Shown: piece after piece, positions 1 through 64,000 of the stretch
How the letters are laid out: every line of letters starts with the position of its first letter
How positions within the stretch are numbered: position 1 is the stretch's first letter
From: an uncultured Desulfurococcales archaeon
GTDB lineage: Archaea > Thermoproteota > Thermoprotei_A > Sulfolobales > CAZCAU01
Direction: 5' to 3'
DNA: 64,000 nucleotides
Assembly (NCBI GenBank): GCA_964496855.1
Contig: CAZCAU010000002.1
Location: 4,122-68,121, forward strand
Translations under genes and position numbers: made by a program
The notes under the pieces: generated by a model
What the model was told of the DNA's origin: nothing
The model's input: the letters and a program-made list of their open reading frames with translations, nothing else
Databases searched by the model: none

Positions 1-1572
1 GCTCTTATCACAGAAGATTCTGGCATCATACCCATAGATACCCTACGATTTTATCAAGACGCTACACTAGCTGCAAAGCCTCTGAAGAATACAACACTTA
101 TCCTCAAAGGATTCTTCCACGGCGGTCTAAGAATAACTCTCAATAATGAAGGCAACGGATACATGATTAGAGACGAGAACGTAGTTAAAAGAGTGCTTAA
201 CTGGTTATTTAGCAGAAACCAATACGCGCGACTAGTTATGTATGCATTATATCCTACACAATATACTGGTTTTATAGAAAAAGGATACCCTTATACGCTT
301 AACATTGAAAAAGCAAGTATAGAAAGATACTCTTCGGAAACGAAAAAACAGTACGTATTCAAATACTCTGAGAGCCTTACAACAATGCTTGCATATGCGG
401 ATAAGTATAGGTATAAGATTCTAAGCTTACCAATACTTGATGACGAGGTGTCAATTATCAATATAACTATAACTCTTAAAACATACACAAGTGTACGCGC
501 AACTTCTTTCAAAATAAGCTTTGAGACCAACAGTGGCTACGTAGTATTCTACGAATCTAGTTATATCCGTCCTCTGAGAATACGCATATTAGAGTATTTT
601 GAAAACAAGACCGCAGTAGCTGAGGCATATGATACTAGTGGCACGATTCTACAATACGCAAGTTACAACAGTATTCTAAAAAGCATCAAGATAGAAACAT
701 ACTATCCTGTTTATACCGTGTACCTAGATATATTAAAAGAAGAATTTATTTCTGGTAATGCCTACCTGAACCTCTCTTCTTTACCTATAAAGCTAGTAGG
801 TGTAAAGATAAATAATTCAATAACTTGGTTTAACTCTTCATCAACTCTCTCCTATATTGGTAAGGGTAGTCTACTAAATTTTGGTAACAATAGAATCTAC
901 TATGTAATCAATATACCCAGCGGCTCTACGCCTATGACTATATTATTCCCACAAATAGTGAGGATCAAAACAGATCTTTCTACACATACTTTTATGCTAT
1001 TAGAAGAAGGAGCCGAGTATATCACGAGACCATACTATGGAGGCATAATGTTTGCTCGAAGCACTGATCCTAGTGACATGATAAGTTTAAACGGTTTTAA
1101 TACGAGTGTACAAGTTATACAAAATAGTAATGCTTGTTTTTACGAAGTGTACTTATCTAATAAACTCGTAGTTGAAGGCCTTCCTCCCGGTGCTGTAGTA
1201 AAGATGAATTCTTCAGATGTAGACATTGCTGAGATTGTTGATGCCTCTGGAGAGGTCAACATCTCAATAGGCTACTCTGTGCCCGATTCATTAGAGATAA
1301 TAATCCCAAACGCGGTGGCGTTCAGTAATAATAGTGTAGAATACTATGATGTTATTAGAGAAGAGAATTGGTTTGGCTACAGACTAGTAGTTAAAAGTGT
1401 TATAGGCCCCTCATGCCTATACATCCCGATAGATAAAGAACCAGCAAATGTAAGTGTAGATAACGCTATGATAAATAATTACGATATACTAGTCTATAGT
1501 AGTTCCAGGGTTTTAAGACTATGTCTAGGCAACGGCGTCCATGACGTTGTGCTATTATTCTTGAAGTCTTAG
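1..1572 (+). CDS. Large extracellular/surface protein, 3' part only (5' end lies left of the window; longer copy at 62059..64000)
   Basis: Frame 1 is open from base 1 to TAG 1570-1572 (523 codons). The translation is identical to the C-terminal part of the mirror ORF. It has many N-x-S/T sequons (NIT, NKT, NLS, NSS, NTS, NVS) and no catalytic motif that I recognise. Confidence 0.6.
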   Translation, partial: ALITEDSGIIPIDTLRFYQDATLAAKPLKNTTLILKGFFHGGLRITLNNEGNGYMIRDENVVKRVLNWLFSRNQYARLVMYALYPTQYTGFIEKGYPYTLNIEKASIERYSSETKKQYVFKYSESLTTMLAYADKYRYKILSLPILDDEVSIINITITLKTYTSVRATSFKISFETNSGYVVFYESSYIRPLRIRILEYFENKTAVAEAYDTSGTILQYASYNSILKSIKIETYYPVYTVYLDILKEEFISGNAYLNLSSLPIKLVGVKINNSITWFNSSSTLSYIGKGSLLNFGNNRIYYVINIPSGSTPMTILFPQIVRIKTDLSTHTFMLLEEGAEYITRPYYGGIMFARSTDPSDMISLNGFNTSVQVIQNSNACFYEVYLSNKLVVEGLPPGAVVKMNSSDVDIAEIVDASGEVNISIGYSVPDSLEIIIPNAVAFSNNSVEYYDVIREENWFGYRLVVKSVIGPSCLYIPIDKEPANVSVDNAMINNYDILVYSSSRVLRLCLGNGVHDVVLLFLKS

Positions 1573-1609
1573 CATGGGGTGATCAGTTTAAAACCCCTAT
1601 AATAGGATA

Positions 1610-1885
1610 GTGGGGGATAAGAAGATGAATATAGTGAATTTTGTTCACGATTTGACAATGAAAATAGTGTCCCTATCTTGGAGCCTATTCTTATTAACAT
1701 GGAGCCTAGGCTGGGCTCTGAGAGGATCACCAGTACCATTTCTCAGACTTAAGAGAACAGGGCAGGACTTAATAGAAGACTCTGTATGGGCAGCATTCTG
1801 GTTAGCCATGGGTTCAACGATATTCGCCATAGTCTCTTATCTTGCCGCACAATTCGCTTTTGAGGCCCCTCCTCCACCATCATAG
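1610..1885 (+). CDS. Small two-TM membrane protein (VirB2/CedA1-like topology; function inferred from topology and context only)
   Basis: 91 aa. Two hydrophobic helices (IVSLSWSLFLLTWSLGWAL and VWAAFWLAMGSTIFAIVSYLAAQF) are separated by a basic loop, RLKRTGQD, and the C-terminus is PPPPS. It sits between the surface protein and the polytopic membrane protein on the same strand. Confidence 0.55.
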   Translation: MGDKKMNIVNFVHDLTMKIVSLSWSLFLLTWSLGWALRGSPVPFLRLKRTGQDLIEDSVWAAFWLAMGSTIFAIVSYLAAQFAFEAPPPPS

Positions 1886-1912
1886 CCCGGTTAGCACACT
1901 AGGTGCGGTACC

Positions 1913-3343
1913 TTGGACGACGTCTTATTAATGGCATACGCTTTTTCCCTACTAACGTATTATCTAGGCGTATTCATGTACTCATTACCTATCCCGATTT
2001 ATGGTGTAAAGAAATGGGCTCCAATACTTCTAAGAGACGGTATTTACTCGCTCATACTCGTATTATCGTATCACACTATTGTATCCATAATGTACTATCT
2101 CTATAGCATGCTGGGTCATGACTGGGCTTCTCTGACATCTTGGCTTCTAGAGAGGCTAGCCTTTCTAATAAATCTGAAACTATTGGTAGCAACAGTAAGT
2201 GTTGCCTCAAGTAGCGTAGGTGTACGGTCATTTATAGATGTATTTGTATCCCCAATATCACATTTGTTATCATACATAATAGTTGCTTTTCAAGCATTCT
2301 ATCTTTTATCAAAAATAATACAACTATACCATTTGAAAATACTATTACTTGGAATATTGTTATTTGCCATACCATTTAGACTTGCACGATGGGCTGGTGC
2401 CTTCTTTATAGCTTTCGCACTTGTATTCTTTGTGGGCATGCCGTCACTGCCATTGTTCGTAAGCACTTTTTCTCCCTCTAATATTGATACAATACCATAT
2501 TCACTTCAAGAAGAAGAGCACATCGTATTCTTTGAGGGGCGGGTCGTCAATAGGTATGGAGAACCACTAAGAGGTGGTCAGCTAGTTTTTACAGATAAGG
2601 AGGGCAGAGAACTAGCATCATACATTATAGATCTAGACGGCACTGTTAAAGCTCTACCCCCTGAAGGAGGTATCCCTCTTAATAGAGAAGTGGATTCATA
2701 CATTATAGTAGATGGTATAAAGCTTCAAACACTCATAAGACCCTCGTTATCGTCTCTGGGAGGAAGAGCGCAATACACCACTAGTATTGTCAAACTAACT
2801 TTCACAGCAGTAGATGTTGTGTGGAGTCCTAAACCATATACGGTTATTGTACTAGAGAATAAGTGTGCGGAAACACACGTGAATACCCAGGCTCCAAGCA
2901 TCTTTAATGCGTCAATACACCCTACTATCAGTTGCCCGCTCCTAATCGCTTATCCAGAAAATTCTTTGGTAAAAGTACACATGTATATGAACAAGACTGT
3001 AGTCACGCCTGTTCTTAACACTACTAGCACTTGGGGAGGCCAGGAATTCAGAGTAATAAAGTTCGTGTTAAAAAGTAACGAGAGTTATTACTTGCATGTA
3101 AGCATTAGCAAGTATCCTAGAGAACTAGACGTTCAAGTGCCTAGTAAAGGCTACATGGAGAAATATCTCGGAGGAGCACTGGATCTCCGTAGACTAGACA
3201 TCATATTAGCTAACTTCCTAGTATCATGGATTATACTCCCCATCTCTTACTATATATTATTGATAAGCATTACTACATCACTTGCATACGTTATAGCGGG
3301 TGCTAGAGAGAGAATACCTATACCACTCAGAGTATACTGGTGA
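1913..3343 (+). CDS. Polytopic membrane protein with a large non-membrane domain (candidate CedA/VirB6-like channel subunit)
   Basis: 476 aa. The TTG start at 1913 is preceded by AGGTG (1901-1905). The N-terminal ~190 aa contain about 6 hydrophobic helices, followed by a ~240-aa hydrophilic beta-rich domain and a C-terminal hydrophobic anchor (ILANFLVSWIILPISYYILLISITTSLAYVIAG). It ends 6 nt before the ATPase gene. Confidence 0.7.
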   Translation: MDDVLLMAYAFSLLTYYLGVFMYSLPIPIYGVKKWAPILLRDGIYSLILVLSYHTIVSIMYYLYSMLGHDWASLTSWLLERLAFLINLKLLVATVSVASSSVGVRSFIDVFVSPISHLLSYIIVAFQAFYLLSKIIQLYHLKILLLGILLFAIPFRLARWAGAFFIAFALVFFVGMPSLPLFVSTFSPSNIDTIPYSLQEEEHIVFFEGRVVNRYGEPLRGGQLVFTDKEGRELASYIIDLDGTVKALPPEGGIPLNREVDSYIIVDGIKLQTLIRPSLSSLGGRAQYTTSIVKLTFTAVDVVWSPKPYTVIVLENKCAETHVNTQAPSIFNASIHPTISCPLLIAYPENSLVKVHMYMNKTVVTPVLNTTSTWGGQEFRVIKFVLKSNESYYLHVSISKYPRELDVQVPSKGYMEKYLGGALDLRRLDIILANFLVSWIILPISYYILLISITTSLAYVIAGARERIPIPLRVYW

Positions 3344-3349
3344 GGAAAA

Positions 3350-4924
3350 GTGCTCGACATATTATTAATAGCTATACTTAGTGGTGCAGGGTTAGCATGG
3401 ATTTACAGAAACACTGTTAATTCGAACATCTCGAAAATACTCACAGTAAATACGCGTCACAAGAAAAGTCTGGATAAAGTGACAGTATTTGTGAAAAAAC
3501 ATAGCGGTCAGAGATATATCTTGTGCAATAACGAAGGGAGCTCTAAAGTTTATGCGGCAGGACTACTAATAGTACCGCTATACGAAAGCATACTTGATAC
3601 AAATATACATGACCTACAAGCCAAGCTTACAGGATTTTATAAGATGCTTAGCGAAATTGATGCAGAAGTCGAGCTCCGATTATTTATGACTAAAGTTACT
3701 GCTAGGGACTTCATAAAGAAGATTGGTAACGAATTGCAAAAACTCTCATTATATGAGTACGACAAGGACCTGCCTGGGATTAGGGCAAAGCAGGAGTATA
3801 GAGTTCTCCACGACATCTATACAAAGATAATGTACGAGAAAAGAGTACCGTTTATATCATATGTACTAATATTAAGACGCAAAGCTAATAACAACAGCGA
3901 TGCAGAAAGACTACTCGCAGAGCTAAATCTTGTAAAAGCGTATTTTGATGTAAATAAGAACATAGAGACAAGAATACTCACCGTAGCAGAATTAGATGCG
4001 TTAGGCGTATGTTCCAATAGTCCTGATAGATACTCCATTATGGTTAAACCAGTTTCTCTAATACCGTATCCACTACAATATGCCAGAATCAACCCTATCG
4101 ATGATCTCAACGTCTACTTAGGCTACGATTTAGATACGGGATACCCTGTCTATATACCATTAGCTAAAATGACTGAGAAACACCACTTAGTGATAGGACC
4201 TACGGGTTCCGGCAAGACAACATATCTGGCAACACTCCTGCTAAGAAGCATTGAGCAGAGAGAATTCTTTAACACCTTCCGGTTAAGTGTATGTATTGAT
4301 CCTAAGGGAGATTTTGTAGAGATGATAAAAAAGTATAGTAGCAAGTTAGGAGACGATTCCCTGGCTCTAAGATGCAATATTACAGACTCTATAAGTGAGG
4401 AGGGGAAAAACCAGAGTCTTGTAGAAGCCATAATCAATGATTGCATAGAAAGGTATAATGCTTCAACAAGGAATCTTGTTGTGTACGACATCTCAGAACT
4501 CAGTGACACCTATAAGAACAATGTGCTAGACCTTATACTAAAACACATATACGAAGAAGCACCAGAGATCCTCGGGGGTAAAAGACTCCTACTAATAATT
4601 GATGAGGGCTGGAGAGTTTTAGAATCTAAGAGCTATTATTTTAAGAGAATGGTTAGAGAAGGACGTAGTTTAGGAATAAACCTTGTGCTAGCAACTCAGT
4701 CCCCAGAGGACATTCCCTTAGGAGTAGCGGTTAACATGCACTCCTACGGTATTTTCGGGTCCTCTAATATAGAGTATCTAGAGGCTGTGAAAGAATTACT
4801 AGGATTAGGCGATAAATACCTAGAAAAACTTTCTACTATGAGCGTAGGCGAATTCTTGTTAAGAATCCCTGGTAGACAGGCTCCTGTGCCCTTGAGAATA
4901 ATTCCTATAACAACTCTTTCGTGA
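3350..4924 (+). CDS. Membrane-anchored VirB4/CedB-like (HerA-FtsK clade) P-loop ATPase
   Basis: 524 aa with a GTG start. It has an N-terminal TM helix (LDILLIAILSGAGLAWIY), Walker A HHLVIGPTGSGKTT, Walker B RLLLIIDEGWRVL, and GINLVLATQSPEDI. The DE[AG]W plus ATQ-x-P-x-D layout is typical of conjugation/DNA-transfer ATPases. Confidence 0.75.
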   Translation: MLDILLIAILSGAGLAWIYRNTVNSNISKILTVNTRHKKSLDKVTVFVKKHSGQRYILCNNEGSSKVYAAGLLIVPLYESILDTNIHDLQAKLTGFYKMLSEIDAEVELRLFMTKVTARDFIKKIGNELQKLSLYEYDKDLPGIRAKQEYRVLHDIYTKIMYEKRVPFISYVLILRRKANNNSDAERLLAELNLVKAYFDVNKNIETRILTVAELDALGVCSNSPDRYSIMVKPVSLIPYPLQYARINPIDDLNVYLGYDLDTGYPVYIPLAKMTEKHHLVIGPTGSGKTTYLATLLLRSIEQREFFNTFRLSVCIDPKGDFVEMIKKYSSKLGDDSLALRCNITDSISEEGKNQSLVEAIINDCIERYNASTRNLVVYDISELSDTYKNNVLDLILKHIYEEAPEILGGKRLLLIIDEGWRVLESKSYYFKRMVREGRSLGINLVLATQSPEDIPLGVAVNMHSYGIFGSSNIEYLEAVKELLGLGDKYLEKLSTMSVGEFLLRIPGRQAPVPLRIIPITTLS

Positions 4925-5027
4925 AACGCCTCTTGGCAGGTAAAAAGGTATATTAAGTCCTTAGTGATACTAACAGTAGGCAGAATTACCTAGTAATCAT
5001 TCACTATAGAATACAGGTGTAGCAGGG

Positions 5028-5744
5028 TTGGGTAAGCGGATATTAGTACAGAGAATGGGCAGAGGCTCTCCGACATTTAGATCACCTACTAAGGGTAGGA
5101 AAGGTCCTGCCAAGTATCCACCCTATCTTGAGGGCACACATAAGGGTATAGTGAAAGCTTTAGTTCACGACTCGGGAAGGTATATGCCTTTAGCAGTTAT
5201 ACAGTTAGATAATGGTATAGAATTTAAGATACTGTCGGCAGAGGGCATGTATGTTGGCCAGGTAGTAGAAATTGGCGCTGAAGCTTCTATCAAGAATGGC
5301 AACATACTACCCCTAGGAAGCATACCTGAGGGTACACAGATATTTAACATAGAGCTAAGGCCGGGTGACGGTGGAAAACTCGCGAGACAGCCCGGCTCTT
5401 ATGCAATGTTGATAGGAAGAGCTGGCGATAAGAGCATAGTTCAGTTGCCCAGTGGTAAGAAGAAAGAGATAGACAATAGGTGCAGAGCAACTATAGGCGT
5501 ACCAGCAGGTGGCGGAAGAATAGAAAAACCATTACTCAAGGCGGGAGCAGCATATCACAAGTGGTCTAAGAAGGCAAGAAAATGGCCTAGAGTACGTGGT
5601 GTAGCGATGAACGCAGTCTCTCACCCCCATGGTGGTGGCAGTCATCAATCAGAGTCGTTCCCGACAACAGTTGCTAGAGAGACCCCACCTGGCAGAAAAG
5701 TAGGACATATAGCAGCTAGGAGAACAGGGCGTAGAAAGCGCTAG
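5028..5744 (+). CDS. rpl2: 50S ribosomal protein uL2 (L2/L8e)
   Basis: 238 aa. The TTG start is preceded by AGGTG (5015-5019). N-terminus MGKRILVQRMGRGS and GVAMNAVSHPHGGG are uL2 hallmarks. Confidence 0.95.
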   Translation: MGKRILVQRMGRGSPTFRSPTKGRKGPAKYPPYLEGTHKGIVKALVHDSGRYMPLAVIQLDNGIEFKILSAEGMYVGQVVEIGAEASIKNGNILPLGSIPEGTQIFNIELRPGDGGKLARQPGSYAMLIGRAGDKSIVQLPSGKKKEIDNRCRATIGVPAGGGRIEKPLLKAGAAYHKWSKKARKWPRVRGVAMNAVSHPHGGGSHQSESFPTTVARETPPGRKVGHIAARRTGRRKR

Positions 5745-5923
5745 TCAGCTACGACCGCATTCATCATGAGTGTAAGTGCAGCATCTTATAAGCCCGCCTT
5801 TCATCACCCTTCTATAGATAATGCTTATTTAAGGGGGCTAAATTAATTAATCCCTGCACTAGACAGAGATAACGCGTTAGAGTAATGATATACAGGTGTC
5901 TCTAGAGAAAGTGGTGTAAGCAC

Positions 5924-6943
5924 ATGGGTGCTAGGAAAAAACACGCACCACGACGCGGAAGCCTGGGTGTAAGACCTAGGAAGAGAGCATCAGATATACT
6001 ACCCAGGGTTAAAAGCTGGCCCGAAATAGACCCTAGTCAAGGCCCTCTTCTACTAGCTTTCATAGGTTACAAAGCTGGGATGACTCACGCTCTCATAATA
6101 GATGATAGAGAAAATTCTCTCACAGCTGGAAGAGAGATATTTGCACCTATAACCGTAATTGAGACTCCACCTATAATACCACTAGCTATCAGAGCATACA
6201 GATACAAGTACGGATACGGGTTACTCACGTTCACAGAGGCGTGGATTGACCCGCCTAGAGAACTCGAGATTGAGAGGGCAATAAGCACGTTCTCGGCAGG
6301 AGACTTTGATAAAAGGATAGATAGGATAAAAGAGAATCTTGACAAGATAGCTGACATAAGGGTAATCATTGCTTCGCAACCGAAGAAAGCAGGCGGGTTA
6401 GAAAAAAAGAAGCCGGACTTGTTAGAAGTAAAAATTGGCGGTAGCTCAATAGAAGACAGGCTTAATTATGCTCTAGGAATCATAGGTAAGGAGGTTACCA
6501 TAGACCAGGTATTCAGACCAGGCCAGTTCATTGATGTTATAGGCGTTACTAAAGGCAAAGGGTTTGGAAGTGTTATAAAGCGTTTTGGAGTAAAAGAGCT
6601 GCCCAGATGGCATAAGCATAGGAAAGGAAGTAGAAAAATAGGAGCTAGAAGCCCAGGCATAGGAACCGTAAGCGAGGCTCCTCAGCCAGGCCAGCTGGGC
6701 TATCATAGAAGAACAGAGTATAACAAGAGAATAATATTAATGGGGAGTGATGGCTATACGATCACACCTTCTGGAGGCTTCCCCCATTACGGCATAGTAA
6801 GATCACACTTTATAGGCGTTCTAGGCTCTGTAATGGGTCCACCTAAGAGACCCCTAGTATTAAGACACCCTATTAGACCACCAGAGTGGAGACCCACTAG
6901 TGCTCCGGAAATAGTGTATCTGAGTTTAACAAGTAAACAATAA
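5924..6943 (+). CDS. rpl3: 50S ribosomal protein uL3
   Basis: 339 aa. N-terminus MGARKKHAPRRGSLGVRPRKRA and the FIGYKAGMTH block identify it. Confidence 0.95.
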   Translation: MGARKKHAPRRGSLGVRPRKRASDILPRVKSWPEIDPSQGPLLLAFIGYKAGMTHALIIDDRENSLTAGREIFAPITVIETPPIIPLAIRAYRYKYGYGLLTFTEAWIDPPRELEIERAISTFSAGDFDKRIDRIKENLDKIADIRVIIASQPKKAGGLEKKKPDLLEVKIGGSSIEDRLNYALGIIGKEVTIDQVFRPGQFIDVIGVTKGKGFGSVIKRFGVKELPRWHKHRKGSRKIGARSPGIGTVSEAPQPGQLGYHRRTEYNKRIILMGSDGYTITPSGGFPHYGIVRSHFIGVLGSVMGPPKRPLVLRHPIRPPEWRPTSAPEIVYLSLTSKQ

Positions 6944-6958
6944 TGAGGTGTATGAAGA

Positions 6959-7786
6959 ATGCCTGTCTTATATACTTACCTGCAACTATATTGCAAGGAG
7001 CCTCCTGAAGTCCCAGTGTACGATGCACATGGAGAGATAGTTAAGAAGATGAAACTGCCATGGTTCTTCGGATTCCCGATAAGAAAGGATCTTATAAGGA
7101 GAGCGTTTCTCGCAGCCTTTACATCGAGAATACAGCCTCAAGGAAGAGACCCCCATGCAGGTAAGCGGACTACTGCACGAAGCTTTGGGGTAGGATTAGG
7201 AATAGCTAGAGTACCTAGAATACCGGGTATAGGCAGAGCAGCGTTTATAAACTCTGCTGTGGGGGGCATGGCTGCACACCCGCCGCGAGTGGAGAAGCGT
7301 ACTAAAGAAGAGATAAACAAGAAAGAAAAGAGAATAGCTCTTCTAAGTGCTCTTGCTTCTACATCTATACCAGAAATGGTTCGAGCCCGTGGTCATAGGT
7401 TCTCGGTAGAGCACCTACCAGTTATACTGAGTAACGGCGTTGAGGATGACATACTATACACTACTAATGCTCGCGAGCTCCTCAAAAAGATAGGATTATG
7501 GGAGGATGTTGAGAGGTCCAAGAAGGGAACCCGTATAAGGGCAGGGAAAGGTAAAATGCGGGGGAGACGTTACAAGGAGCCTAAAAGCATACTATTCATA
7601 CTAAGTGACGCATCATCTAATCTTGCACTGGCTGTTAGGAACTTACCGGGAGTAGATATAATGACTCCTAAGACACTCAACATACTACTTCTAGCACCCG
7701 GCGGCGTACCTGGCAGACTAACCGTAATTACCGAGAATGCTCTTGAAATGCTTACAAAAATGTTTAGCGAGGGAGCGTCGCCTTGA
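6959..7786 (+). CDS. rpl4: 50S ribosomal protein uL4 (L4/L1e)
   Basis: 275 aa with blocks [30 protein letters not shown] and [12 protein letters not shown]. Confidence 0.95.
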
Positions 7787-8052
7787 CAGGAGTTGATCCT
7801 TTCAAAATACTTCTAAGACCATTACACACCGAAAAAGCCATACTAATGATAGAGAGGGAAAACACACTAACATTCATAGTTGATAGAAGGGCTACAAAGA
7901 AACAGATTAAAGAAGCTGTTGAACAGTATTTTAAGGTCAAGGTGGAAAAAGTACGTACACTCATAACTCCTCGTGGCGAGAAAAAAGCATACATAAAGCT
8001 AGCAGAAGGCTATAATGCGTCGGAGATCGCTACAAGACTAGGTATAGTGTAA
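7783..8052 (+). CDS. rpl23: 50S ribosomal protein uL23
   Basis: 89 aa. The TTG start overlaps the rpl4 stop (TTGA at 7783-7786). Block [27 protein letters not shown]. Confidence 0.93.
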
Positions 8053-8084
8053 AGCATACTAATTTCTTCTACTCGGACTATTCT

Positions 8085-8957
8085 CTATCCTGCCTTAACA
8101 CTTGTTATACTCAGTGCATAGTCTAGGATAGCTAGTGTTATTAGAATAGCTTCTTCGGTCCTAATGGTTTTTGTAAATTGATGATACACTACATTAACCA
8201 CATAGTCTGCTTTATTATCCAAATTAAGATTATGATATGAAGCTATCTCGTATAATCCCTCAAAGGGTCCGCCGAATAGCAGCAAAAGCTTCTTTTTACG
8301 ATTAACTGCCTCTTTAAGCTCCTCTATGATGTCTCTCACATATACACCTTTTCGACTAGTAGCTAAAATCACATAGTTCTTCTCATAGTCACTTATTAGA
8401 GATACTATATCCGGATAAACCTTAACTCTATAGCCTCGATAAATATTGTTACAAACGCTAGGATCTTTTACTATCTCTCCCAGAACTCTCTCCCTAGTTC
8501 TCACTATCTTTACTAAATGCAATCCTTCTCTAACTTTTTTATCAATATTAGGTTCATGCATCAGCTCTATCGGCTTCTCTAAACCAACATACGCGTAAAA
8601 CTTATTCTTCTTCCTAAAAACTAAGGCCTCTCTGCATTCTCCCTCCTCTAATTCGCTGGTTACAGTATGAGTTGGTATTTGTAGTGGATACAATGCACCA
8701 ACACTGCTTAGAGTATCTTTTTTCCCGTACACCATTTTCTTTAAGTATGGTGGTACAACAGCGTATCCGAGTACGTCGGCAACAAGCTCAAGAGAATCTT
8801 TACGTGTATACCTATCAGCGTATACAATTAGCTCGTCTACGCCAAAAATTACAGCGCTCCTCGCTATTAGTCCTAGTTTTAGAGTCTTCCTGAGAGGGCC
8901 TGGCTCAACCTCGACTATGCTTCCAGGAAAAGCTATTGCGATAGAATAAAAACTCAT
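8085..8957 (-). CDS. Putative SPOUT-superfamily RNA methyltransferase (COG2106/DUF171, SPOUT1-like)
   Basis: 290 aa, and the only real gene on the opposite strand of this arm. N-terminal SIAIAFPGSIV...LGLIARSAVIFGVDELIVY and C-terminal KTIRTEEAILITLAIL resemble the DUF171 family. AGGTGA lies 4 nt upstream of the ATG. The family assignment comes from motif recall, not a search. Confidence 0.6.
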   Translation of the reverse strand: MSFYSIAIAFPGSIVEVEPGPLRKTLKLGLIARSAVIFGVDELIVYADRYTRKDSLELVADVLGYAVVPPYLKKMVYGKKDTLSSVGALYPLQIPTHTVTSELEEGECREALVFRKKNKFYAYVGLEKPIELMHEPNIDKKVREGLHLVKIVRTRERVLGEIVKDPSVCNNIYRGYRVKVYPDIVSLISDYEKNYVILATSRKGVYVRDIIEELKEAVNRKKKLLLLFGGPFEGLYEIASYHNLNLDNKADYVVNVVYHQFTKTIRTEEAILITLAILDYALSITSVKAG

Positions 8958-8977
8958 ATCTTCACCTAGAACATGGA

Positions 8978-9005
8978 GTAGAGGAGGGTCGAAAAGCTCC
9001 TCTAC
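8978..9005 (-). promoter_or_regulatory. 9-10 bp perfect stem-loop directly upstream of the SPOUT-like gene's Shine-Dalgarno sequence
   Basis: GTAGAGGAG (8978-8986) pairs with CTCCTCTAC (8997-9005) around a 10-nt loop. It overlaps the stop codon of a 22-codon micro-ORF (9002..9070, minus strand). Mirror copy at 54626..54653. Confidence 0.3.
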
Positions 9006-9419
9006 TTTTTCTTCTTACCTTTCTTGCTAGTTTTTTCCTCTTCTTCTTTAGACTCTTTCCCTATACCCATGAATATTGTTGTTCTCTGTCTGCCACCCAC
9101 TACGTCTTCACCGGGTATACTAAGTTGCTAATCAAGCCAAAATAGTTTTACCATGCCGAGATAATAATATACTAATGGTTGCGTAGAGATAGTAAGCAGC
9201 TTTCTGGCCCAGTGAAGAATTTGCCGAGTACTGAGACAGAAAACGGTGATGATAACTAGTTGCTGAGGGATAATGATTTTGGTGTTATTCAAGCTTCTCT
9301 ACTCATCACAAAACAGCTACTTGTCAGCGTTTGCACCCTTCTTCATCCATATAGTCAGGTATAGATATTTTAATAAGGGTTACTTAAGACTTCTTCGTAG
9401 TGACAGCTGATATATTCTG

Positions 9420-9698
9420 GTGCTAGACGTTATGAGCAGAAAGAACACGGAGACTAAATACAGGGTGTATTTCACGTTATACGATGAAGAGTTATTTAAG
9501 AAAATCCTTAAAGAACTCGATAACACTCTTGACGTGAATATTATCATTCATAAGTCTATTTTCCCAGAATTTAGATATATTGAAATAATTCCCTCGCGAG
9601 GCAAAACTCATATTGATAAAAGTATTCTCTTCAATCTTCTTTCTAAGTATAGTGAAGAAGTATCTGGTCTTAGAATTGATGAGATAAAGATAGAGTAA
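9420..9698 (+). CDS. Hypothetical small protein upstream of ileS
   Basis: 92 aa from GTG 9420 (first ATG at 9432). It ends 15 nt before ileS on the same strand. I recognise no motif. Confidence 0.4.
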   Translation: MLDVMSRKNTETKYRVYFTLYDEELFKKILKELDNTLDVNIIIHKSIFPEFRYIEIIPSRGKTHIDKSILFNLLSKYSEEVSGLRIDEIKIE

Positions 9699-9712
9699 AG
9701 AGATGAATAGCC

Positions 9713-12700
9713 ATGGATAAACGTTCACTTATCTTCAAAGAACACTATGTACCTCATGATGTTGAAGAAGCTATATTCAGGTACTGGGATAACATAGGTC
9801 TACGCAAATTAATTGAGGATTCTATAAAAAGTGCTAAGAAGAAATTCTATTTCTTAGACGGCCCACCATACGTCTCAGCACCAAGTATACACATAGGTAC
9901 TGCTTGGAATAAGGTTATCAAGGACTCAGTACTGAGATACAAGAGAATGCAAGGCTACAACGTATGGGATAAGCCGGGTTTCGATTGTCATGGATTACCT
10001 ATAGAGGTACAGATGGAAAAACAACTTGGTATAAAGAATAAGCGTGAAATCATCGAGAAGATAGGTATAAAGGAGTTTGTCGAGAAATGCAAAGAGCTCG
10101 CACTAAGTAATATGGAGGGTATGAAAGAGAAGTTTAAAGATCTAGGCGTGGAGATGGATTGGAATAATCCGTATCTCACGTTAGATCCGGAGTACATAGA
10201 GTCGGGCTGGTGGCTGATAAAAAGAGCGTATGAGAAGGGTCTTCTAGAAGAAGACGTGAGTGTACTGCACTGGTGTCCGAGATGCGAGACTACACTAGCT
10301 GACTATGAAGTATCAGAGTATAGGATTATGCGTGACCCATCAATATATGTGCTTTTCCCACTTATAGGAGAGAATGAGAAGTACATTGTTATCTGGACTA
10401 CCACACCATGGACGCTTCCCGCTAATACCATGGTAATGGTGCACCCGGACCTAGACTACGCAGAAGTAGAGGCTGTTGTGAATGATAAGAGGATAGTACT
10501 GGTCCTTCTAGAAAACAGGGTAAAAGAGGTATTAGAAAAAGAGGCTGGCATAACACATTATAGTATAAAAAAGAAGTTCAAGGGCAAAGAACTAGTGGGA
10601 AAGAAATATGCTCATCCACTCAGAGATTTAGTTGACGCTCAGAAAAAGCTTGATGAGTACCACAAGATAGTTGCAGCGCCTGAGGCGGTATCTCCCTATG
10701 AAGGTACAGGCTTGGTGCATGCGGCACCTGGTCACGGAACAATAGATTTTGAGATAGCTAAGAAGCTTGGTTTCCCAATAGTATCACTCATAGACGATCA
10801 AGGAAGATTCGTGGCTGAGGCTGGCAAGTATAGAGGATTGTACTTCAAAGATGCTAATAATGTAATAATAAGAGATCTCAAAGAGAAGAATGCTCTTCTG
10901 GCATCATCTACCATAGAGCATCGTTACCCAGTTTGCTGGAGATGCAAAACACCACTTATATTGAGAGCTACAAAACAATGGTTCATACGAGTCTCAAGGC
11001 TGTATAAGAAGCTTATTGAAGAAGCTGATAAAGTCAAATGGATACCAGATTGGGCTAAAGAGAGGTTTATGAACTGGATTAGAGACGTTAGGGACTGGGT
11101 TATATCCAGGCAGAGGTACTGGGGGATACCGCTACCTATATGGCGGTGCAATAACTGTGGACAAACCATTGTTATAGGCAGTAAAGAAGAGCTGAGAAAA
11201 TTCGGTGCTTCATACATACCCGAGGATCCGCACAGGCCAGACATAGACGAGGTAGTGCTTAAATGCCCACGATGCGGGGGAGAAATGTATAGAATACCGG
11301 ATGTGCTAGACGTATGGTTTGATAGCGGCGTCTCCTTCTACGCGAGTCTCGGGTATCCTAAGAGCAAACTATGGGACGATCTTAAACCAGTAGACTTCAT
11401 AGTTGAAGGCCATGATCAGACTAGAGGATGGTTCTTTAGTTTGTTAAGAAGCGGAGTAATAGGTTTTGGCGAGGCCCCTTACACTACTGTCCTTGTCCAC
11501 GGCTTCATGCTTGACGAGCATGGTAGGGAGATGCACAAGAGCCTGGGCAACTACGTGGAGCCTGATGAAGTTATAGATAGGTATGGACGTGACATATTTA
11601 GGCTCTGGGTACTAGGGAATACTACCTGGGAAGATATAAGGTTCTCCTGGAAACGAATAGAGTTAGCTAAGAAAACCCTATCTATAGCATGGAACGTATT
11701 CAGATTCGCGTACACCTATATGAAACTAGACAAGTTCTCGCCTTCCAAGTCATCGGTAGAACAACTACTAGAGTCTAATGCTTTGGGACCTGAAGATAAG
11801 TGGCTCCTGAACAAGACTAACAAGCTTGTAAAAGAAGTTACCAAGGCTTTTGAAGAGTACAGGATACATGAGGCGGTCAGACACTTAGTAGACTTCATAG
11901 TGGATGATGTAAGCCACTGGTATATACGATTAGTACGTAGGAAAGCTTGGGAAGAAGAGTTATCTCCGCAAAAACTAGCATCATATACAGTACTATACAA
12001 TGCTCTCAGAACATGGCTTCTACTAATATCTCCTATAACGCCGTTCATAAGCGAGTACCTATACCAGGTATTCATAAGAGAGTTCGAAGACAAAGCTAAA
12101 ACAAGTATACATCTAGAGAACTGGCCTAGTTATCGCGAAGAGTACATCGATGACAATCTTGAAGAAAAAATGAGTATAGTGAGAGAAGTTATCGAGAATA
12201 CTCTTGTCGCGAGAATGAAAGCTGGTATAAAGCTAAGACAACCCGTGGCAAGACTAATTATCTCGTCTACTAATCAAAAAGTACTCGACGCCGTAAACTT
12301 CTTCAAGAAGATACTACTGGAACAAGCAAACGCCAAGAATCTTGAGATATTAAGTGTTGAAGACTTTAAAGCTATGAGAAAGATAAGAGTAGAACCTGTA
12401 CTTAGCATCATTGGTAAAGAATTCAAGTCTAACACGCCCTTTGTAATTAAAACAATAGAAGAGAAGAACAAAGAGATAGCTGGAAGCATAGCTACTAAAG
12501 GATACTACGAGATAACTCTCGAGAATGGCAAAAAACTCGTCCTACGCAAAGAGCATGTGCGGCTAGTAAGTGATTACCCCGACTGGTTGTCCGTGAAAGA
12601 AACCGACTGGGGATTCATTGCTATAGACACTAGGTTATCAAAACAAGAGATACTTGAGGGTCTTGCGAGAGATCTTGTTAGAAGAATACAGTTTATGAGA

Positions 12701-12931
12701 AAAAAACTACAGCTACCAGTAGACACATACATAGTCACATCTATATACACTAAGGATGCTGACATGCTTGAAGCTGTGAAATTGTACAATGACTACCTTA
12801 AAGAAGAGACGAGAAGTATAGAGATAAGGACAGGTGCTGTAGCAAGCGAACAAGTAGGGGAGGATGAGTTAAGAGAGTCTTGGGACATCGATGGACGTGA
12901 GGTAGTAATAATAATTAAGCCTGTGAAATAA
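9713..12931 (+). CDS. ileS: Isoleucyl-tRNA synthetase
   Basis: 1072 aa. It has a HIGH-type motif (PSIHIGTAWNK), a KMSKS-type loop (EMHKSLGN), and zinc knuckles CPRCETTL, CWRCKTPL and CPRCGG. The length is typical of archaeal IleRS. Confidence 0.97.
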   Translation: MDKRSLIFKEHYVPHDVEEAIFRYWDNIGLRKLIEDSIKSAKKKFYFLDGPPYVSAPSIHIGTAWNKVIKDSVLRYKRMQGYNVWDKPGFDCHGLPIEVQMEKQLGIKNKREIIEKIGIKEFVEKCKELALSNMEGMKEKFKDLGVEMDWNNPYLTLDPEYIESGWWLIKRAYEKGLLEEDVSVLHWCPRCETTLADYEVSEYRIMRDPSIYVLFPLIGENEKYIVIWTTTPWTLPANTMVMVHPDLDYAEVEAVVNDKRIVLVLLENRVKEVLEKEAGITHYSIKKKFKGKELVGKKYAHPLRDLVDAQKKLDEYHKIVAAPEAVSPYEGTGLVHAAPGHGTIDFEIAKKLGFPIVSLIDDQGRFVAEAGKYRGLYFKDANNVIIRDLKEKNALLASSTIEHRYPVCWRCKTPLILRATKQWFIRVSRLYKKLIEEADKVKWIPDWAKERFMNWIRDVRDWVISRQRYWGIPLPIWRCNNCGQTIVIGSKEELRKFGASYIPEDPHRPDIDEVVLKCPRCGGEMYRIPDVLDVWFDSGVSFYASLGYPKSKLWDDLKPVDFIVEGHDQTRGWFFSLLRSGVIGFGEAPYTTVLVHGFMLDEHGREMHKSLGNYVEPDEVIDRYGRDIFRLWVLGNTTWEDIRFSWKRIELAKKTLSIAWNVFRFAYTYMKLDKFSPSKSSVEQLLESNALGPEDKWLLNKTNKLVKEVTKAFEEYRIHEAVRHLVDFIVDDVSHWYIRLVRRKAWEEELSPQKLASYTVLYNALRTWLLLISPITPFISEYLYQVFIREFEDKAKTSIHLENWPSYREEYIDDNLEEKMSIVREVIENTLVARMKAGIKLRQPVARLIISSTNQKVLDAVNFFKKILLEQANAKNLEILSVEDFKAMRKIRVEPVLSIIGKEFKSNTPFVIKTIEEKNKEIAGSIATKGYYEITLENGKKLVLRKEHVRLVSDYPDWLSVKETDWGFIAIDTRLSKQEILEGLARDLVRRIQFMRKKLQLPVDTYIVTSIYTKDADMLEAVKLYNDYLKEETRSIEIRTGAVASEQVGEDELRESWDIDGREVVIIIKPVK

Positions 12932-13049
12932 AATTACCTTCATCTAAACACGTAGCTTAATTAACAATATTTAATTTTATAGAGTAATACGTGTTAAAGA
13001 ACAGTCTGCTGAAAATAACTAGCAGACCAAGCCCAATAGGTATCATATT

Positions 13050-13646
13050 ATGAGGAATAATGTTAACAGTGAATACTTAAAGATAACACCTAGTGAAGTG
13101 AGAACTTATACTTATTGTCCCCGGCTCTTCTTCTATGAGACGTACATGAGTAGAGAAAAGAGCTTCTCCGAGAAACTGAGACTTGCTCTTGGTAGACTTT
13201 ATCACTTTATCTTGGAGAGCCTAATACGTATCAGGAGGAGAGGAGCACTTGTAGAAAAAAGTATTGAAAGACCACTAGGGAACATACTATTAGTAGGGCG
13301 TCCAGACGCGATTCTTCCTGGTAAAGATCATCTTCAAATAGTAGAGATAAAAAGTGGTAAAGCCCCAGCCAATGGGAGACCCTGGCATTCTGATAAGATG
13401 CAACTAGTTGCATATTACATGTTGTTATCAGGTGTGGTACAGAAAGAGATAAGGACTCTGCTACGGTACCGTGATAGAGAATTCTTTGTGAAGATAACAT
13501 CTAATGATGTTACGCGTTTTCATAAAATATTAGAAGAAATATATTACGTGAAAGCATATGGTATATTCCCGGCAGCCAAATATAGTCCAGGAAAATGTCA
13601 AAGATGTCCTTATCTAACGTACTGCATGATTGTAGGCTTTCCCTAG
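13050..13646 (+). CDS. Stand-alone Cas4-like PD-(D/E)xK nuclease (DUF83 architecture)
   Basis: 198 aa. It has an N-terminal Cys (YTYCPRLFFY), a nuclease core (GRPDAIL...LQIVEIKSGK), QLVAYYML, and a C-terminal CQRCPYLTYC cluster, giving a 4-Cys Fe-S arrangement. There is no CRISPR array or other cas gene in the window. Confidence 0.7.
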   Translation: MRNNVNSEYLKITPSEVRTYTYCPRLFFYETYMSREKSFSEKLRLALGRLYHFILESLIRIRRRGALVEKSIERPLGNILLVGRPDAILPGKDHLQIVEIKSGKAPANGRPWHSDKMQLVAYYMLLSGVVQKEIRTLLRYRDREFFVKITSNDVTRFHKILEEIYYVKAYGIFPAAKYSPGKCQRCPYLTYCMIVGFP

Positions 13647-13739
13647 CCTCTTCCTCAACAATACTCAAATGCTAAAATAAATTAGTCCCTAAGGATATAT
13701 CATGTTGTACTAGAGGCTGCTATAAGAGGAAATAACGTA

Positions 13740-14684: not shown

Positions 14685-14688
14685 CTAT

Positions 14689-16773: not shown

Positions 16774-16793
16774 AGAATTACGAGTCTTGGGGA

Positions 16794-16805
16794 AAATTTA
16801 ATATT
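16794..16805 (+). promoter_or_regulatory. TATA-box-like element upstream of the uS19-led operon
   Basis: AAATTTAATATT lies in the 114-nt intergenic region, about 85 nt upstream of the GTG start at 16888. Mirror copy at 46826..46837. Motif only. Confidence 0.25.
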
Positions 16806-16887
16806 CCCATATAGTTAATCCGTGTAACAAAGAAGATGCTGGTAGGGGTAACCGGTAGTAAATGCTGAAGAAAATGGTGGGGATAGC

Positions 16888-17328
16888 GTGGCTATAAGCA
16901 TAGAAGAGATCCCGGTCGAATGGAGAAAATTTAGGTATAGAGGACGTAGCATAGAGGAATTACTAAACCTGCCGATGGACGAGTTCATTAAACTTCTCCC
17001 TGCTCGTCAAAGAAGGAGCATTCTCAGAGGGTTTACGCCTGCACAAAGAAAGCTTATAGAAAAGATAAGGCGTGTCAGAAATATCCTTAAGAAAGACCCC
17101 AATAGGAAAATCGTTATACGTACCCATGTAAGAGACATGATCATACTACCTGAGATGGTAGGATTAACTATTGCTGTTTACAATGGCAAAGAGTTCATAC
17201 CCGTAAGGATCACACCAGAGATGATAGGTCATTACTTAGGAGAGTTCGCGCCTACGTGTAAACAAGTACAGCACGGCGAGCCTGGTCTGAAAGCCACTCG
17301 TTCAAGCATGTTCGTAGGACTAAAGTAA
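16888..17328 (+). CDS. rps19: 30S ribosomal protein uS19 (S15e)
   Basis: 146 aa. The GTG start is preceded by GGTGG. Blocks [28 protein letters not shown] and [15 protein letters not shown]. Confidence 0.93.
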
Positions 17329-17347
17329 TAGAGAGGTGCAGAACACA

Positions 17348-17818: not shown

Positions 17819-17823
17819 CGGCA

Positions 17824-18635: not shown

Positions 18636-18661
18636 AATAAACGTCCAAATGGTTCTAAGTT

Positions 18662-18949: not shown

Positions 18950-18952
18950 AAT

Positions 18953-19318: not shown

Positions 19319-19324
19319 TGCTAG

Positions 19325-19750: not shown

Positions 19751-19761
19751 GTGAATAAAGG

Positions 19762-20139: not shown

Positions 20140-20151
20140 TCTTCTTAAGGC

Positions 20152-61718: not shown

Positions 61719-61745
61719 GGTACCGCACCTAGTGTGCTAACCGGG

Positions 61746-62021
61746 CTATGATGGTGGAGGAGGGGCCTCAAAAGCGAATTGTGCGGCAAGATAAGAGACT
61801 ATGGCGAATATCGTTGAACCCATGGCTAACCAGAATGCTGCCCATACAGAGTCTTCTATTAAGTCCTGCCCTGTTCTCTTAAGTCTGAGAAATGGTACTG
61901 GTGATCCTCTCAGAGCCCAGCCTAGGCTCCATGTTAATAAGAATAGGCTCCAAGATAGGGACACTATTTTCATTGTCAAATCGTGAACAAAATTCACTAT
62001 ATTCATCTTCTTATCCCCCAC
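61746..62021 (-). CDS. Small two-TM membrane protein (mirror copy)
   Basis: Twin of 1610..1885; identical 91-aa translation. Confidence 0.5.
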   Translation of the reverse strand: MGDKKMNIVNFVHDLTMKIVSLSWSLFLLTWSLGWALRGSPVPFLRLKRTGQDLIEDSVWAAFWLAMGSTIFAIVSYLAAQFAFEAPPPPS

Positions 62022-62058
62022 TATCCTATTATAGGGGTTTTAAACTGATCACCCCATG

Positions 62059-64000
62059 CTAAGACTTCAAGAATAATAGCACAACGTCATGGACGCCGTT
62101 GCCTAGACATAGTCTTAAAACCCTGGAACTACTATAGACTAGTATATCGTAATTATTTATCATAGCGTTATCTACACTTACATTTGCTGGTTCTTTATCT
62201 ATCGGGATGTATAGGCATGAGGGGCCTATAACACTTTTAACTACTAGTCTGTAGCCAAACCAATTCTCTTCTCTAATAACATCATAGTATTCTACACTAT
62301 TATTACTGAACGCCACCGCGTTTGGGATTATTATCTCTAATGAATCGGGCACAGAGTAGCCTATTGAGATGTTGACCTCTCCAGAGGCATCAACAATCTC
62401 AGCAATGTCTACATCTGAAGAATTCATCTTTACTACAGCACCGGGAGGAAGGCCTTCAACTACGAGTTTATTAGATAAGTACACTTCGTAAAAACAAGCA
62501 TTACTATTTTGTATAACTTGTACACTCGTATTAAAACCGTTTAAACTTATCATGTCACTAGGATCAGTGCTTCGAGCAAACATTATGCCTCCATAGTATG
62601 GTCTCGTGATATACTCGGCTCCTTCTTCTAATAGCATAAAAGTATGTGTAGAAAGATCTGTTTTGATCCTCACTATTTGTGGGAATAATATAGTCATAGG
62701 CGTAGAGCCGCTGGGTATATTGATTACATAGTAGATTCTATTGTTACCAAAATTTAGTAGACTACCCTTACCAATATAGGAGAGAGTTGATGAAGAGTTA
62801 AACCAAGTTATTGAATTATTTATCTTTACACCTACTAGCTTTATAGGTAAAGAAGAGAGGTTCAGGTAGGCATTACCAGAAATAAATTCTTCTTTTAATA
62901 TATCTAGGTACACGGTATAAACAGGATAGTATGTTTCTATCTTGATGCTTTTTAGAATACTGTTGTAACTTGCGTATTGTAGAATCGTGCCACTAGTATC
63001 ATATGCCTCAGCTACTGCGGTCTTGTTTTCAAAATACTCTAATATGCGTATTCTCAGAGGACGGATATAACTAGATTCGTAGAATACTACGTAGCCACTG
63101 TTGGTCTCAAAGCTTATTTTGAAAGAAGTTGCGCGTACACTTGTGTATGTTTTAAGAGTTATAGTTATATTGATAATTGACACCTCGTCATCAAGTATTG
63201 GTAAGCTTAGAATCTTATACCTATACTTATCCGCATATGCAAGCATTGTTGTAAGGCTCTCAGAGTATTTGAATACGTACTGTTTTTTCGTTTCCGAAGA
63301 GTATCTTTCTATACTTGCTTTTTCAATGTTAAGCGTATAAGGGTATCCTTTTTCTATAAAACCAGTATATTGTGTAGGATATAATGCATACATAACTAGT
63401 CGCGCGTATTGGTTTCTGCTAAATAACCAGTTAAGCACTCTTTTAACTACGTTCTCGTCTCTAATCATGTATCCGTTGCCTTCATTATTGAGAGTTATTC
63501 TTAGACCGCCGTGGAAGAATCCTTTGAGGATAAGTGTTGTATTCTTCAGAGGCTTTGCAGCTAGTGTAGCGTCTTGATAAAATCGTAGGGTATCTATGGG
63601 TATGATGCCAGAATCTTCTGTGATAAGAGCTATGGGTCTCAGATTGTTGCCTGGAATAATATTAGATATGCTCTTTAAATCTACTAACATGGTGTCCCCA
63701 GGCGGTAAGTATAGCTTGTTGTCTAGAGGTGCGATTATTGTAGCATTGCTAGTCTGATTCTCGTATATTATTGCACTAATAACTGCTGGTTTTGACGCTT
63801 GGTTGCCTATGTAGAGATGAGTCGAATTTATGGACGAGGCTAGGATAGGTAAGTGCATGGATTCTACTCCTTCTATAATATACCTAGATGCAAGCGTTAC
63901 TCTTGTTGCCTCATTGCTCATATACTCGGTAATCATGATAGAAGTTATGAGCAGGGCTGGTAGGATTATTGCTAATCCGATTATGCTACTAATAGCCTTG
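62059..64000 (-). CDS. Large N-glycosylation-sequon-rich surface protein with a class III (prepilin-like) signal peptide; 5' end just outside the window
   Basis: The track ORF (62059..63936, 625 aa) starts at an internal Met. The frame stays open to base 64000 and the extra 21 codons read KAISSIIGLAIILPALLITSI before MITEYMSNEATRV. That is K-A followed by a ~22-residue hydrophobic helix, as in PibD/FlaK-processed archaeal prepilins. Sequons include NQTSNAT and NTT. Confidence 0.65.
   Translation of the reverse strand, partial: KAISSIIGLAIILPALLITSIMITEYMSNEATRVTLASRYIIEGVESMHLPILASSINSTHLYIGNQASKPAVISAIIYENQTSNATIIAPLDNKLYLPPGDTMLVDLKSISNIIPGNNLRPIALITEDSGIIPIDTLRFYQDATLAAKPLKNTTLILKGFFHGGLRITLNNEGNGYMIRDENVVKRVLNWLFSRNQYARLVMYALYPTQYTGFIEKGYPYTLNIEKASIERYSSETKKQYVFKYSESLTTMLAYADKYRYKILSLPILDDEVSIINITITLKTYTSVRATSFKISFETNSGYVVFYESSYIRPLRIRILEYFENKTAVAEAYDTSGTILQYASYNSILKSIKIETYYPVYTVYLDILKEEFISGNAYLNLSSLPIKLVGVKINNSITWFNSSSTLSYIGKGSLLNFGNNRIYYVINIPSGSTPMTILFPQIVRIKTDLSTHTFMLLEEGAEYITRPYYGGIMFARSTDPSDMISLNGFNTSVQVIQNSNACFYEVYLSNKLVVEGLPPGAVVKMNSSDVDIAEIVDASGEVNISIGYSVPDSLEIIIPNAVAFSNNSVEYYDVIREENWFGYRLVVKSVIGPSCLYIPIDKEPANVSVDNAMINNYDILVYSSSRVLRLCLGNGVHDVVLLFLKS

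Follow-up and report, generated by a model that had tools for sequence, protein, structure and literature searches.

A perfect 63,630-nt palindrome across an archaeal ribosomal-protein gene cluster is most probably a contig folded back on itself beside a tRNA gene

Inverted duplications are known as products of assembly, sequencing, and amplification as well as of biology. In the presence of a "lonely inverted loop", where a terminal k-mer can be extended only by its own reverse complement, SPAdes and MEGAHIT leave palindromic unitigs unsplit (Rahman and Medvedev 2022, PMC9528984); that study treats palindromic unitigs mainly as true genomic palindromes split by some assemblers. Inverted-repeat chimeric reads are frequent in nanopore ligation libraries, at 0.18-7.33% of reads (PMC13141652). 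MDA chimeras, of which more than 85% are inverted, are described as "inverted with intervening deletion", with priming at complementary stretches of 2-21 nt (Lasken and Stockwell 2007, PMC1855051). Long reads that fold back, whether by nanopore read-through or on PacBio molecules without an adapter, have mirror-image halves with the junction exactly at the fragment end.

Among biological systems, the hairpin telomeres of phage N15 (telRL/TelN), Borrelia (ResT), and Agrobacterium (TelA) read as perfect palindromes; they are dedicated telomere palindromes of tens of bp at replicon ends, accompanied by a resolvase gene. Giant palindromes of tens of kb are head-to-head duplications found in Tetrahymena rDNA and in yeast and tumour amplicons, the latter two arising from breakage-fusion-bridge. 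They are eukaryotic and usually keep an asymmetric centre, a short remnant of the loop that separated the seeding inverted repeats. We know of no giant palindrome of an archaeal ribosomal-protein cluster.

The window analysed here, 64,000 nt of a GenBank contig, shares its head-to-head layout and its scale with these giant palindromes. An earlier note had described it as a perfect, spacer-less palindrome and predicted that its halves would align without differences. This is borne out base by base (x versus 63631-x): reverse-complementing 31816-63630 gives positions 1-31815 exactly, with 0 mismatches, 0 indels, and no spacer. The features are as follows.

1-31815, plus strand: left arm, genuine single-copy chromosome of a Desulfurococcales-like archaeon.
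31582-31670, plus strand: tRNA-Ser(TGA) (ARAGORN; Rfam RF00005, 48.8 bits).
31671-31815, plus strand: strain-specific stretch of 145 nt from the tRNA to the axis, mirrored at 31816-31960.
31813-31818, no strand: CCC/GGG axis, spacer-less (base-by-base comparison and sequence inspection).
31816-63630, minus strand: right arm, mirror copy of the left (0 mismatches; the same relatives match in reverse orientation).
31961-32049, minus strand: mirrored twin of tRNA-Ser(TGA) (ARAGORN; Rfam).
63631-64000, minus strand: tail past the mirrored part, genuine chromosome that continues leftward of window position 1.

At the axis, AAAGATAGTGTATCCC on the left meets GGGATACACTATCTTT on the right, and every base of the centre is paired. 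The SmaI/XmaI site at this point is uninformative, because perfect palindromes always centre on a palindromic hexamer. Within one arm (31.7 kb), the longest spacer-less perfect palindrome measures 16 nt, and a chance origin of the 63,630-nt palindrome is therefore ruled out.

The outer limit of the symmetry is set by the window edge and not by the sequence itself, as comparison with independent data shows. An ORF stays open throughout the 370-nt tail and continues past the right edge of the window, and the tail is 100% identical to an independent contig of the same strain (L015) that extends beyond window position 1 (window 58218-64000 equals L015 7285-1503 at 100% identity); to the sister genome (L013) the tail is 99.3% identical. 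The left arm is thus cut by the window, as had been suspected. The source contig comprises 71,872 nt, at least 89% of which is palindrome (64,000 nt seen, all palindrome-consistent), and each arm consequently measures between 31,815 and 35,936 nt. For a contig that consists almost wholly of palindrome, the prior for an artefact is far higher.

From the outside inward, the left arm carries a large membrane-anchored ORF that the window edge truncates, then a Ced-like cluster, L2-L3-L4-L23, and an RNA methyltransferase. These are followed by IleRS, a Cas4-like nuclease, MoxR/VWA, the genes from S19 through L15, SecY, Adk, and L34e, and then by Cmk, L14e, Cbf5 (with intron), an MTS-type methyltransferase, tRNA-Ser, and 145 nt. 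The mirrored content is indeed core machinery, with 24 ribosomal-protein genes per arm by Pfam instead of the about 30 first estimated; in all, each arm holds about 41 protein genes and 1 tRNA. The 24 ribosomal-protein genes, SecY, IleRS, and others are single-copy in every relative examined.

Taken by itself, each arm is ordinary single-copy chromosome by comparison with its relatives. In the sister genome GCA_053989155.1, one 437-kb contig (L013, L010, L001) matches the entire arm colinearly (99.0-99.5% identity, no indels), spans the locus uninterrupted, and enters non-mirrored genes past tRNA-Ser, namely Nitro_FeMo-Co, two CbiA/ParA-Fer4 genes, AhpC, AsnC, and Dfx, followed by S13-S4-S11-RpoD. 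An Ignisphaera MAG conserves this order, with the methyltransferase, tRNA-Ser, about 2 kb, and then S13-S4-S11-RpoD, genes that are present nowhere within the window. Thus, the 99%-identical genome and more distant relatives alike hold one copy of the arm with an ordinary, non-mirrored continuation after tRNA-Ser, the region to which the earlier note had pointed as a check. The real chromosome almost certainly holds one copy of the arm of about 32-36 kb, as far as these sequence comparisons reach.

These relatives also bear on the idea that a linear replicon ends here in a covalently closed hairpin telomere, or has a replicated telomere junction, and that reading around the hairpin would have given the mirror image. 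Such an end shares with the window a perfect palindrome and an axis without spacer. However, the mirrored DNA here comprises at least 31.8 kb of core chromosome, neither plasmid nor virus, and the locus is single-copy and internal to the 437-kb contig of the 99% relative rather than at a replicon end, with relatives keeping the gene order through to the S13 operon. Moreover, no telomere-resolvase (protelomerase)-like Pfam domain is found in the unannotated ORFs of the window, which covers one 32-kb arm of the genome. We regard a telomere at this position as extremely improbable.

Independent assemblies of the same strain agree with a single copy. Four short-read contigs (L015, L016, L009, and L002), drawn from ENA ERZ27248007 and Logan SRR7051160 (Illumina), are 100% identical to one arm over about 20.6 kb. 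None of the four crosses the axis; the nearest, L002, ends at 31470, and L003, from a 99% strain, ends at 31609, short of the axis as well. Neither the full methyltransferase allele of the window nor an axis-crossing ORF occurs in any indexed contig. The junction is contained in no independent contig found, which is negative evidence only.

The axis lies 145 nt beyond the end of tRNA-Ser, as the earlier note had placed it and as the tRNA coordinates confirm. In L001, L005, and L006, tRNA-Ser(TGA) sits at the same place, 3' of the methyltransferase gene. Beyond it, three close relatives carry three different sequences. Similarity to L001 ends at 31671, one base past the tRNA, while L017 is 100% identical through 31731 and divergent beyond, so that the first 61 nt (31671-31731) are identical to the left terminus of an element integrated in that relative. 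In L017, a 440-aa PF16795 integrase begins 127 nt past the tRNA, together with an MmeI/Eco57I-like restriction-modification gene and MazE. This integrase is of the tyrosine-recombinase type and belongs to an integrase family, not to the resolvases. The last 84 nt (31732-31815) gave 0 matches in genomes, metagenomes, viral contigs, phages, plasmids, or any retrieved locus, and the same searches found no contig in which these 84 nt continue into non-mirrored DNA. As judged from these matches, the axis falls within mobile-element DNA that varies between strains and sits where a tRNA serves as integration site. DNA of this kind is a typical place for an assembly to stop. Past tRNA-Ser(TGA), the genome probably continues into strain-specific DNA, an integrated element with an archaeal SSV-type integrase.

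The same setting would suit a real event. At the edge of the integrated element next to tRNA-Ser, a break might, in some of the population, have been sealed as a hairpin and replicated, leaving either a chromosome fragment with a hairpin end or a giant perfect palindrome; we consider this very improbable. A more specific form, a very recent palindromic rearrangement in some cells in which a double-strand break at or in the element was hairpin-capped as a short natural palindrome at CCC/GGG folded back, and was replicated into a head-to-head inverted dimer or amplicon of the ribosomal-protein region, likewise appears very improbable. Replication of a hairpin-capped end predicts a perfect spacer-less palindrome, identical to the one that an artefact would leave, and mobile-element DNA next to an integration site is a plausible place for breaks and for recombinase activity; the rearrangement is compatible with everything in the sequence alone. 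Against it, the arm is present once in relatives and in independent assemblies of the same strain, where the junction does not appear, the product would be missing the remaining chromosome on one side, and the prior favours an artefact for a contig that is almost entirely palindrome. Furthermore, cells with Mre11-Rad50/SbcCD-type nucleases do not stably maintain long palindromes that have no spacer, and to our knowledge such a rearrangement is without precedent in archaea. Altogether, a real palindrome or hairpin end is very improbable.

We therefore favour the reading that the earlier note had ranked first, a fold-back chimera, which is supported by the single-copy arms, the lack of a junction-bearing contig among the independent ones found, and the variable mobile-element context of the axis. 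Very probably, the palindrome is an artefact of a contig that folded back on itself beside the tRNA gene, rather than a real duplication of the ribosomal gene cluster. In the proposed sequence of events, the assembler path would hit a dead end in the variable region after tRNA-Ser, where the last node would be linked solely to its own reverse complement by an inverted self-edge. The walk would then retrace the same sequence and output S and then reverse-complement(S). Passing through the same graph nodes a second time would account for 0 differences over 31,815 nt and for the lack of junk bases at the axis.

The self-edge could have two sources, to which we assign roughly even odds. It may stem from a short natural perfect palindrome of at least k-1 nt at CCC/GGG that coincides with a coverage gap and thus forms a lonely inverted loop. 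The resulting unitigs resemble the window in being exactly S plus reverse-complement(S), with identical halves and no spacer; the dead-end fold-back proposed here extends the concept beyond its published form (PMC9528984), and the required natural palindrome is putative and indistinguishable within a sequence that is palindromic throughout. Counting against this source, a natural perfect palindrome of at least 20 nt would be needed exactly at the coverage gap. The maximum within the arm is 16 nt, and suitable sites are therefore rare, a few per genome.

Alternatively, the self-edge may stem from a single fold-back read or a few of them, produced when sequencing passes straight from the template strand of a duplex fragment into its complement, as in nanopore inverted-repeat chimeras or a SMRTbell molecule without one adapter. 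The window shares the mirror-image halves of such reads. Unlike single fold-back reads, however, its arms reach at least 31.8 kb and are error-free (100% identical to Illumina contigs), so that under this route the assembler would have extended both arms with normal accurate reads. Errors or adapter remnants are usual at such junctions unless the reads are highly accurate.

An MDA inverted chimera carried into the assembly would likewise be an artefactual inverted duplication of adjacent sequence. Amplification is common for low-biomass samples, and inverted products predominate among MDA chimeras. In contrast to the offset junction expected of them, the offset here is exactly zero; because typical MDA chimeras have an intervening deletion, this origin fits less well than a self-link in the graph, and we consider it very improbable. 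Among the three candidates proposed in the earlier note, MDA is therefore the weakest; the purely graph-level route had been missing from that list.

If the palindrome is an artefact, its significance is limited to the data quality of a public record: a 71,872-nt GenBank MAG contig would carry a mirrored duplicate of about 41 genes, 24 universal ribosomal-protein markers included. This duplicate would inflate estimates of contamination and strain heterogeneity as well as gene-copy counts, and it could mislead comparative analyses. The contig would then be a clear case for an automatic self-reverse-complement check of contigs. If the junction is real, it would be the first case in an archaeon of a chromosomal end capped by a hairpin or of a giant perfect palindrome, arising at the edge of a mobile element, with the ribosomal-protein/SecY cluster duplicated in a hyperthermophile, and it would have implications for the processing of hairpin and palindromic DNA in archaea.

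The window folds back on itself without exception: every position x from 1 to 31815 is complementary to position 63631-x (31,815 of 31,815 pairs, zero indels), and the two arms meet without a spacer at ...GTGTATCCC|GGGATACAC..., which confirms the perfect palindrome described in an earlier note on this DNA. As the longest spacer-less perfect palindrome within one arm (31.7 kb) measures only 16 nt, the window palindrome lies far beyond chance. An old paralogous duplication as the origin of the arms is ruled out by their zero divergence. Likewise, the CCCGGG at the axis (31815/31816) is no sign of ligation at a restriction site, since the central hexamer of any perfect palindrome is itself palindromic. 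The axis lies 145 nt past a tRNA gene that is present in both arms:

31582-31670, plus strand, tRNA-Ser(TGA)
31961-32049, minus strand, mirrored twin of tRNA-Ser(TGA)

The remaining 370 nt (tail, 63631-64000) contain one ORF that is open over their full span, and are unmirrored only owing to the start point of the window. They are 100% identical to a short-read contig (L015) that extends leftward beyond window position 1. Thus, the window edge cuts the left arm, as previously noted. In the protein collection, the IleRS, SecY, CedA1-like, and methyltransferase proteins of the window are each found on one single NCBI contig of 71,872 nt, the source contig, of which the mirrored region and the tail make up at least 89%. 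Each arm therefore measures 31,815-35,936 nt. The near-central axis does not indicate symmetry of the whole contig, as arms of at least 31.8 kb in a 71.9-kb contig force it close to the middle.

Public contigs carrying the same genes were recovered through exact-protein look-ups. A 437,317-nt contig of the sister genome GCA_053989155.1 (L013, L010, L001) is colinear with window positions 1..31671 at 99.0-99.5% identity and without any indel. Moreover, four short-read contigs, together about 20.6 kb, are 100% identical to one arm and evidently derive from the same strain.

Short-read contigs matching one arm of the palindrome
L015, ENA ERZ27248007 (MEGAHIT), window 1-5413 and tail, 100% identity
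L009, ENA ERZ27248007 (MEGAHIT), window 5603-8821, 100% identity
L002, ENA ERZ27248007 (MEGAHIT), window 22704-31470, 100% identity
L016, Logan SRR7051160, window 1659-5060, 100% identity

The colinear sister contig and the identical short-read contigs together show that the arm is bona fide chromosome, accurately assembled, from a Desulfurococcales-like archaeon. A search of the literature under the sample and run accessions had no result. A 1-base gap between the window and L002 is not a long-read homopolymer error, as it falls within the 15 unaligned nt at the start of L002. Among species representatives, the nearest are MAGs of Ignisphaera and Desulfurococcaceae, whose methyltransferase is about 50% identical at the amino-acid level.

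By Pfam, each arm encodes 24 ribosomal proteins (L2, L3, L4, L23, S19, L22, S3, L29, S17, L14, L24, S4e, L5, S14, S8, L6, L32e, L19e, L18, S5, L30, L15, L34e, and L14e), fewer than the "about 30" counted earlier. Their order is unusual (window 5028-16773): L2 lies upstream of L3-L4-L23 rather than after L23, and L23 and S19 lie about 8.8 kb apart, with an RNA methyltransferase (minus strand), IleRS, a Cas4-like nuclease, and a MoxR AAA_5/VWA pair between them. The 99% relative shares this L2-L3-L4-L23 ... S19 order. The Cas4-like PD-(D/E)XK nuclease (13050-13646) stands alone; without a dedicated CRISPR-repeat scan, neither a CRISPR array nor a further cas gene was noticed in this arm. Directly upstream of the ribosomal-protein genes lies a Ced-like DNA-import cluster (window 1610-4924):

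1610-1885, CedA1-like ORF
1913-3343, CedA1-like ORF
3350-4924, HerA/FtsK-type ATPase, CedB-like (PF01580/PF01935)

Orthologues of both CedA1-like ORFs in L013 and L015 carry precomputed PF27251 (CedA1) matches, which our local Pfam copy did not report for the window ORFs. Large uncharacterised proteins adjoin the Ced-like genes. The ORF that runs off the window edge (62059-64000, minus strand) is part of a protein of 655-659 aa that has a hydrophobic anchor at its N terminus; in L013 (2496-8223), a 1056-aa protein and then a 136-aa protein come before it, and none of the three has a Pfam match. At the other end of the arm, the MTS-type methyltransferase ORF (30987-31604) overlaps tRNA-Ser by 23 nt on the same strand, and the same overlap occurs in L001 (gene 11514-12131, tRNA from 12109).

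An in-frame insert of 27 nt, GAGCCCCTGCACTAGCAGGGGCGGGGA, breaks the cbf5 gene; it contains a TAG stop and lies between ...GHGGTL and DPKVTG... (window 30164-30190, mirror 33441-33467). The insert folds into a strong hairpin flanked by 3-nt bulges (-38 kcal/mol, z = -2.8), and L001 and L002 contain it too. A Desulfurococcaceae MAG (L006) lacks the insert and reads continuously as GHGGTLDPKVTG. The cbf5 gene of an Ignisphaera MAG (L005) is broken as well and loses its frame right after GHGGTL, which suggests a different insert. The insert resembles the intron known from crenarchaeal cbf5 pre-mRNA, a bulge-helix-bulge substrate that the tRNA splicing endonuclease cuts.

Beyond tRNA-Ser, the 99% relative does not turn back. 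A small unannotated stretch is followed by Nitro_FeMo-Co, two CbiA/ParA-ferredoxin genes, AhpC, an AsnC regulator, desulfoferrodoxin, and then the S13-S4-S11-RpoD operon. An Ignisphaera MAG has the same order of methyltransferase, tRNA-Ser, about 2 kb, and S13-S4-S11-RpoD. None of the genes that follow tRNA-Ser in these relatives, through S13-S4-S11-RpoD, occurs within the window. A search for the same-strain continuation via members of the S13 cluster did not reach it; it led to an NCBI contig outside the index and to L019, which stops before the tRNA. The conserved layout is a single copy of the arm, a variable insert after the tRNA, and the S13 operon. L001 has a Nitro_FeMo-Co/CbiA island at this place; no further contig in the collection encodes its Nitro_FeMo-Co protein, the next relative of which is 76% identical.

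A perfect palindrome is also what a hairpin telomere or a replicated telomere junction would look like in sequence. However, the 99% relative has the locus at an internal position, synteny extends onward in more distant relatives, and the unannotated ORFs of the window show no resolvase-like domain.

In the 145 nt between tRNA and axis (31671-31815), similarity to the 99% relative ends one base past the tRNA 3' end. In L017, a SPAdes contig from another sample (ENA ERZ1742239) whose flanking genes are about 93% identical to the window, tRNA-Ser and the next 61 nt (31671-31731) are 100% identical, with divergence thereafter. A 440-aa archaeal SSV-type integrase begins 127 nt after this tRNA (PF16795, E = 9e-20), followed by a 1001-aa MmeI/Eco57I-like restriction-modification gene and a MazE antitoxin (L017 1379-9556). 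With these genes, the stretch is an integrated mobile element. Homologues of the integrase led to a related one likewise placed beside a different tRNA (L018), to which the 145 nt show no match. The 84 nt at 31732-31815 matched nothing in any collection searched; an axis-adjacent 30-mer and a 27-mer from within the 145 nt gave 0 exact matches among genome, metagenome, and viral contigs; blastn of 144 nt against phages and plasmids found no match; and short-word blastn against all fetched loci returned chance 11-12-mers only. Three close relatives thus each have a different sequence directly after the 3' end of tRNA-Ser(TGA), a flank that is an integration hot spot, and the axis lies within this strain-variable, mobile-element-associated DNA. 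Independent assemblies also end nearby (L002 at 31470; L003, from a 99% strain, at 31609). The complete methyltransferase allele of the window is on no indexed contig, and the axis-crossing 98-aa ORF, the IleRS, the methyltransferase, and a 469-aa ORF are absent from the gene-position index.

Such a mobile-element context makes a break at the axis conceivable, recently capped by a hairpin and then replicated. However, the junction is without independent support, and for a contig that is almost wholly palindrome the prior is strongly in favor of an artefact. Long spacer-less palindromes are unstable in vivo. Taken together, we consider all readings as a real structure, telomeric ones included, very improbable. 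The palindrome is very probably a fold-back artefact rather than a genomic feature; this was also the preferred reading of the earlier note, and the single-copy arm in relatives and the unsupported junction strengthen it. To this we add a route at the level of the assembly graph.

The most economical explanation combines a dead end with an inverted self-edge. The assembly path would dead-end within the variable element, where the sole remaining edge would link the terminal node with the reverse complement of that same node; the assembler would then re-walk the same nodes and write S + reverse-complement(S). Walking back over the same nodes would yield zero differences, no spacer, and a twin for every ORF. 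Such an edge could arise in two documented ways, between which we cannot choose here. In a de Bruijn graph, a k-mer with a (k-1)-suffix that equals its own reverse complement creates an "inverted loop" and, if this loop is "lonely" (no other extension), a palindromic maximal unitig, which SPAdes and MEGAHIT output whole (PMC9528984). For this, the gap would have to contain a natural perfect palindrome of k-1 nt or more. Judging from the 16-nt maximum in 31.7 kb, a genome offers a few suitable sites at k = 21. Alternatively, in a string graph, a few fold-back reads at the contig end would do the same. In such reads the template is followed by its complement strand; they account for 0.18-7.33% of the reads in nanopore ligation libraries (PMC13141652). 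Of the candidates in the earlier note, MDA fits least: classical MDA chimeras are "inverted with intervening deletions" (PMC1855051) and would not yield a zero-offset junction. A short-read or HiFi/polished origin suits the 100% match of the arm to Illumina contigs and the clean axis. The value of the palindrome lies mainly in flagging a quality problem in a public MAG.
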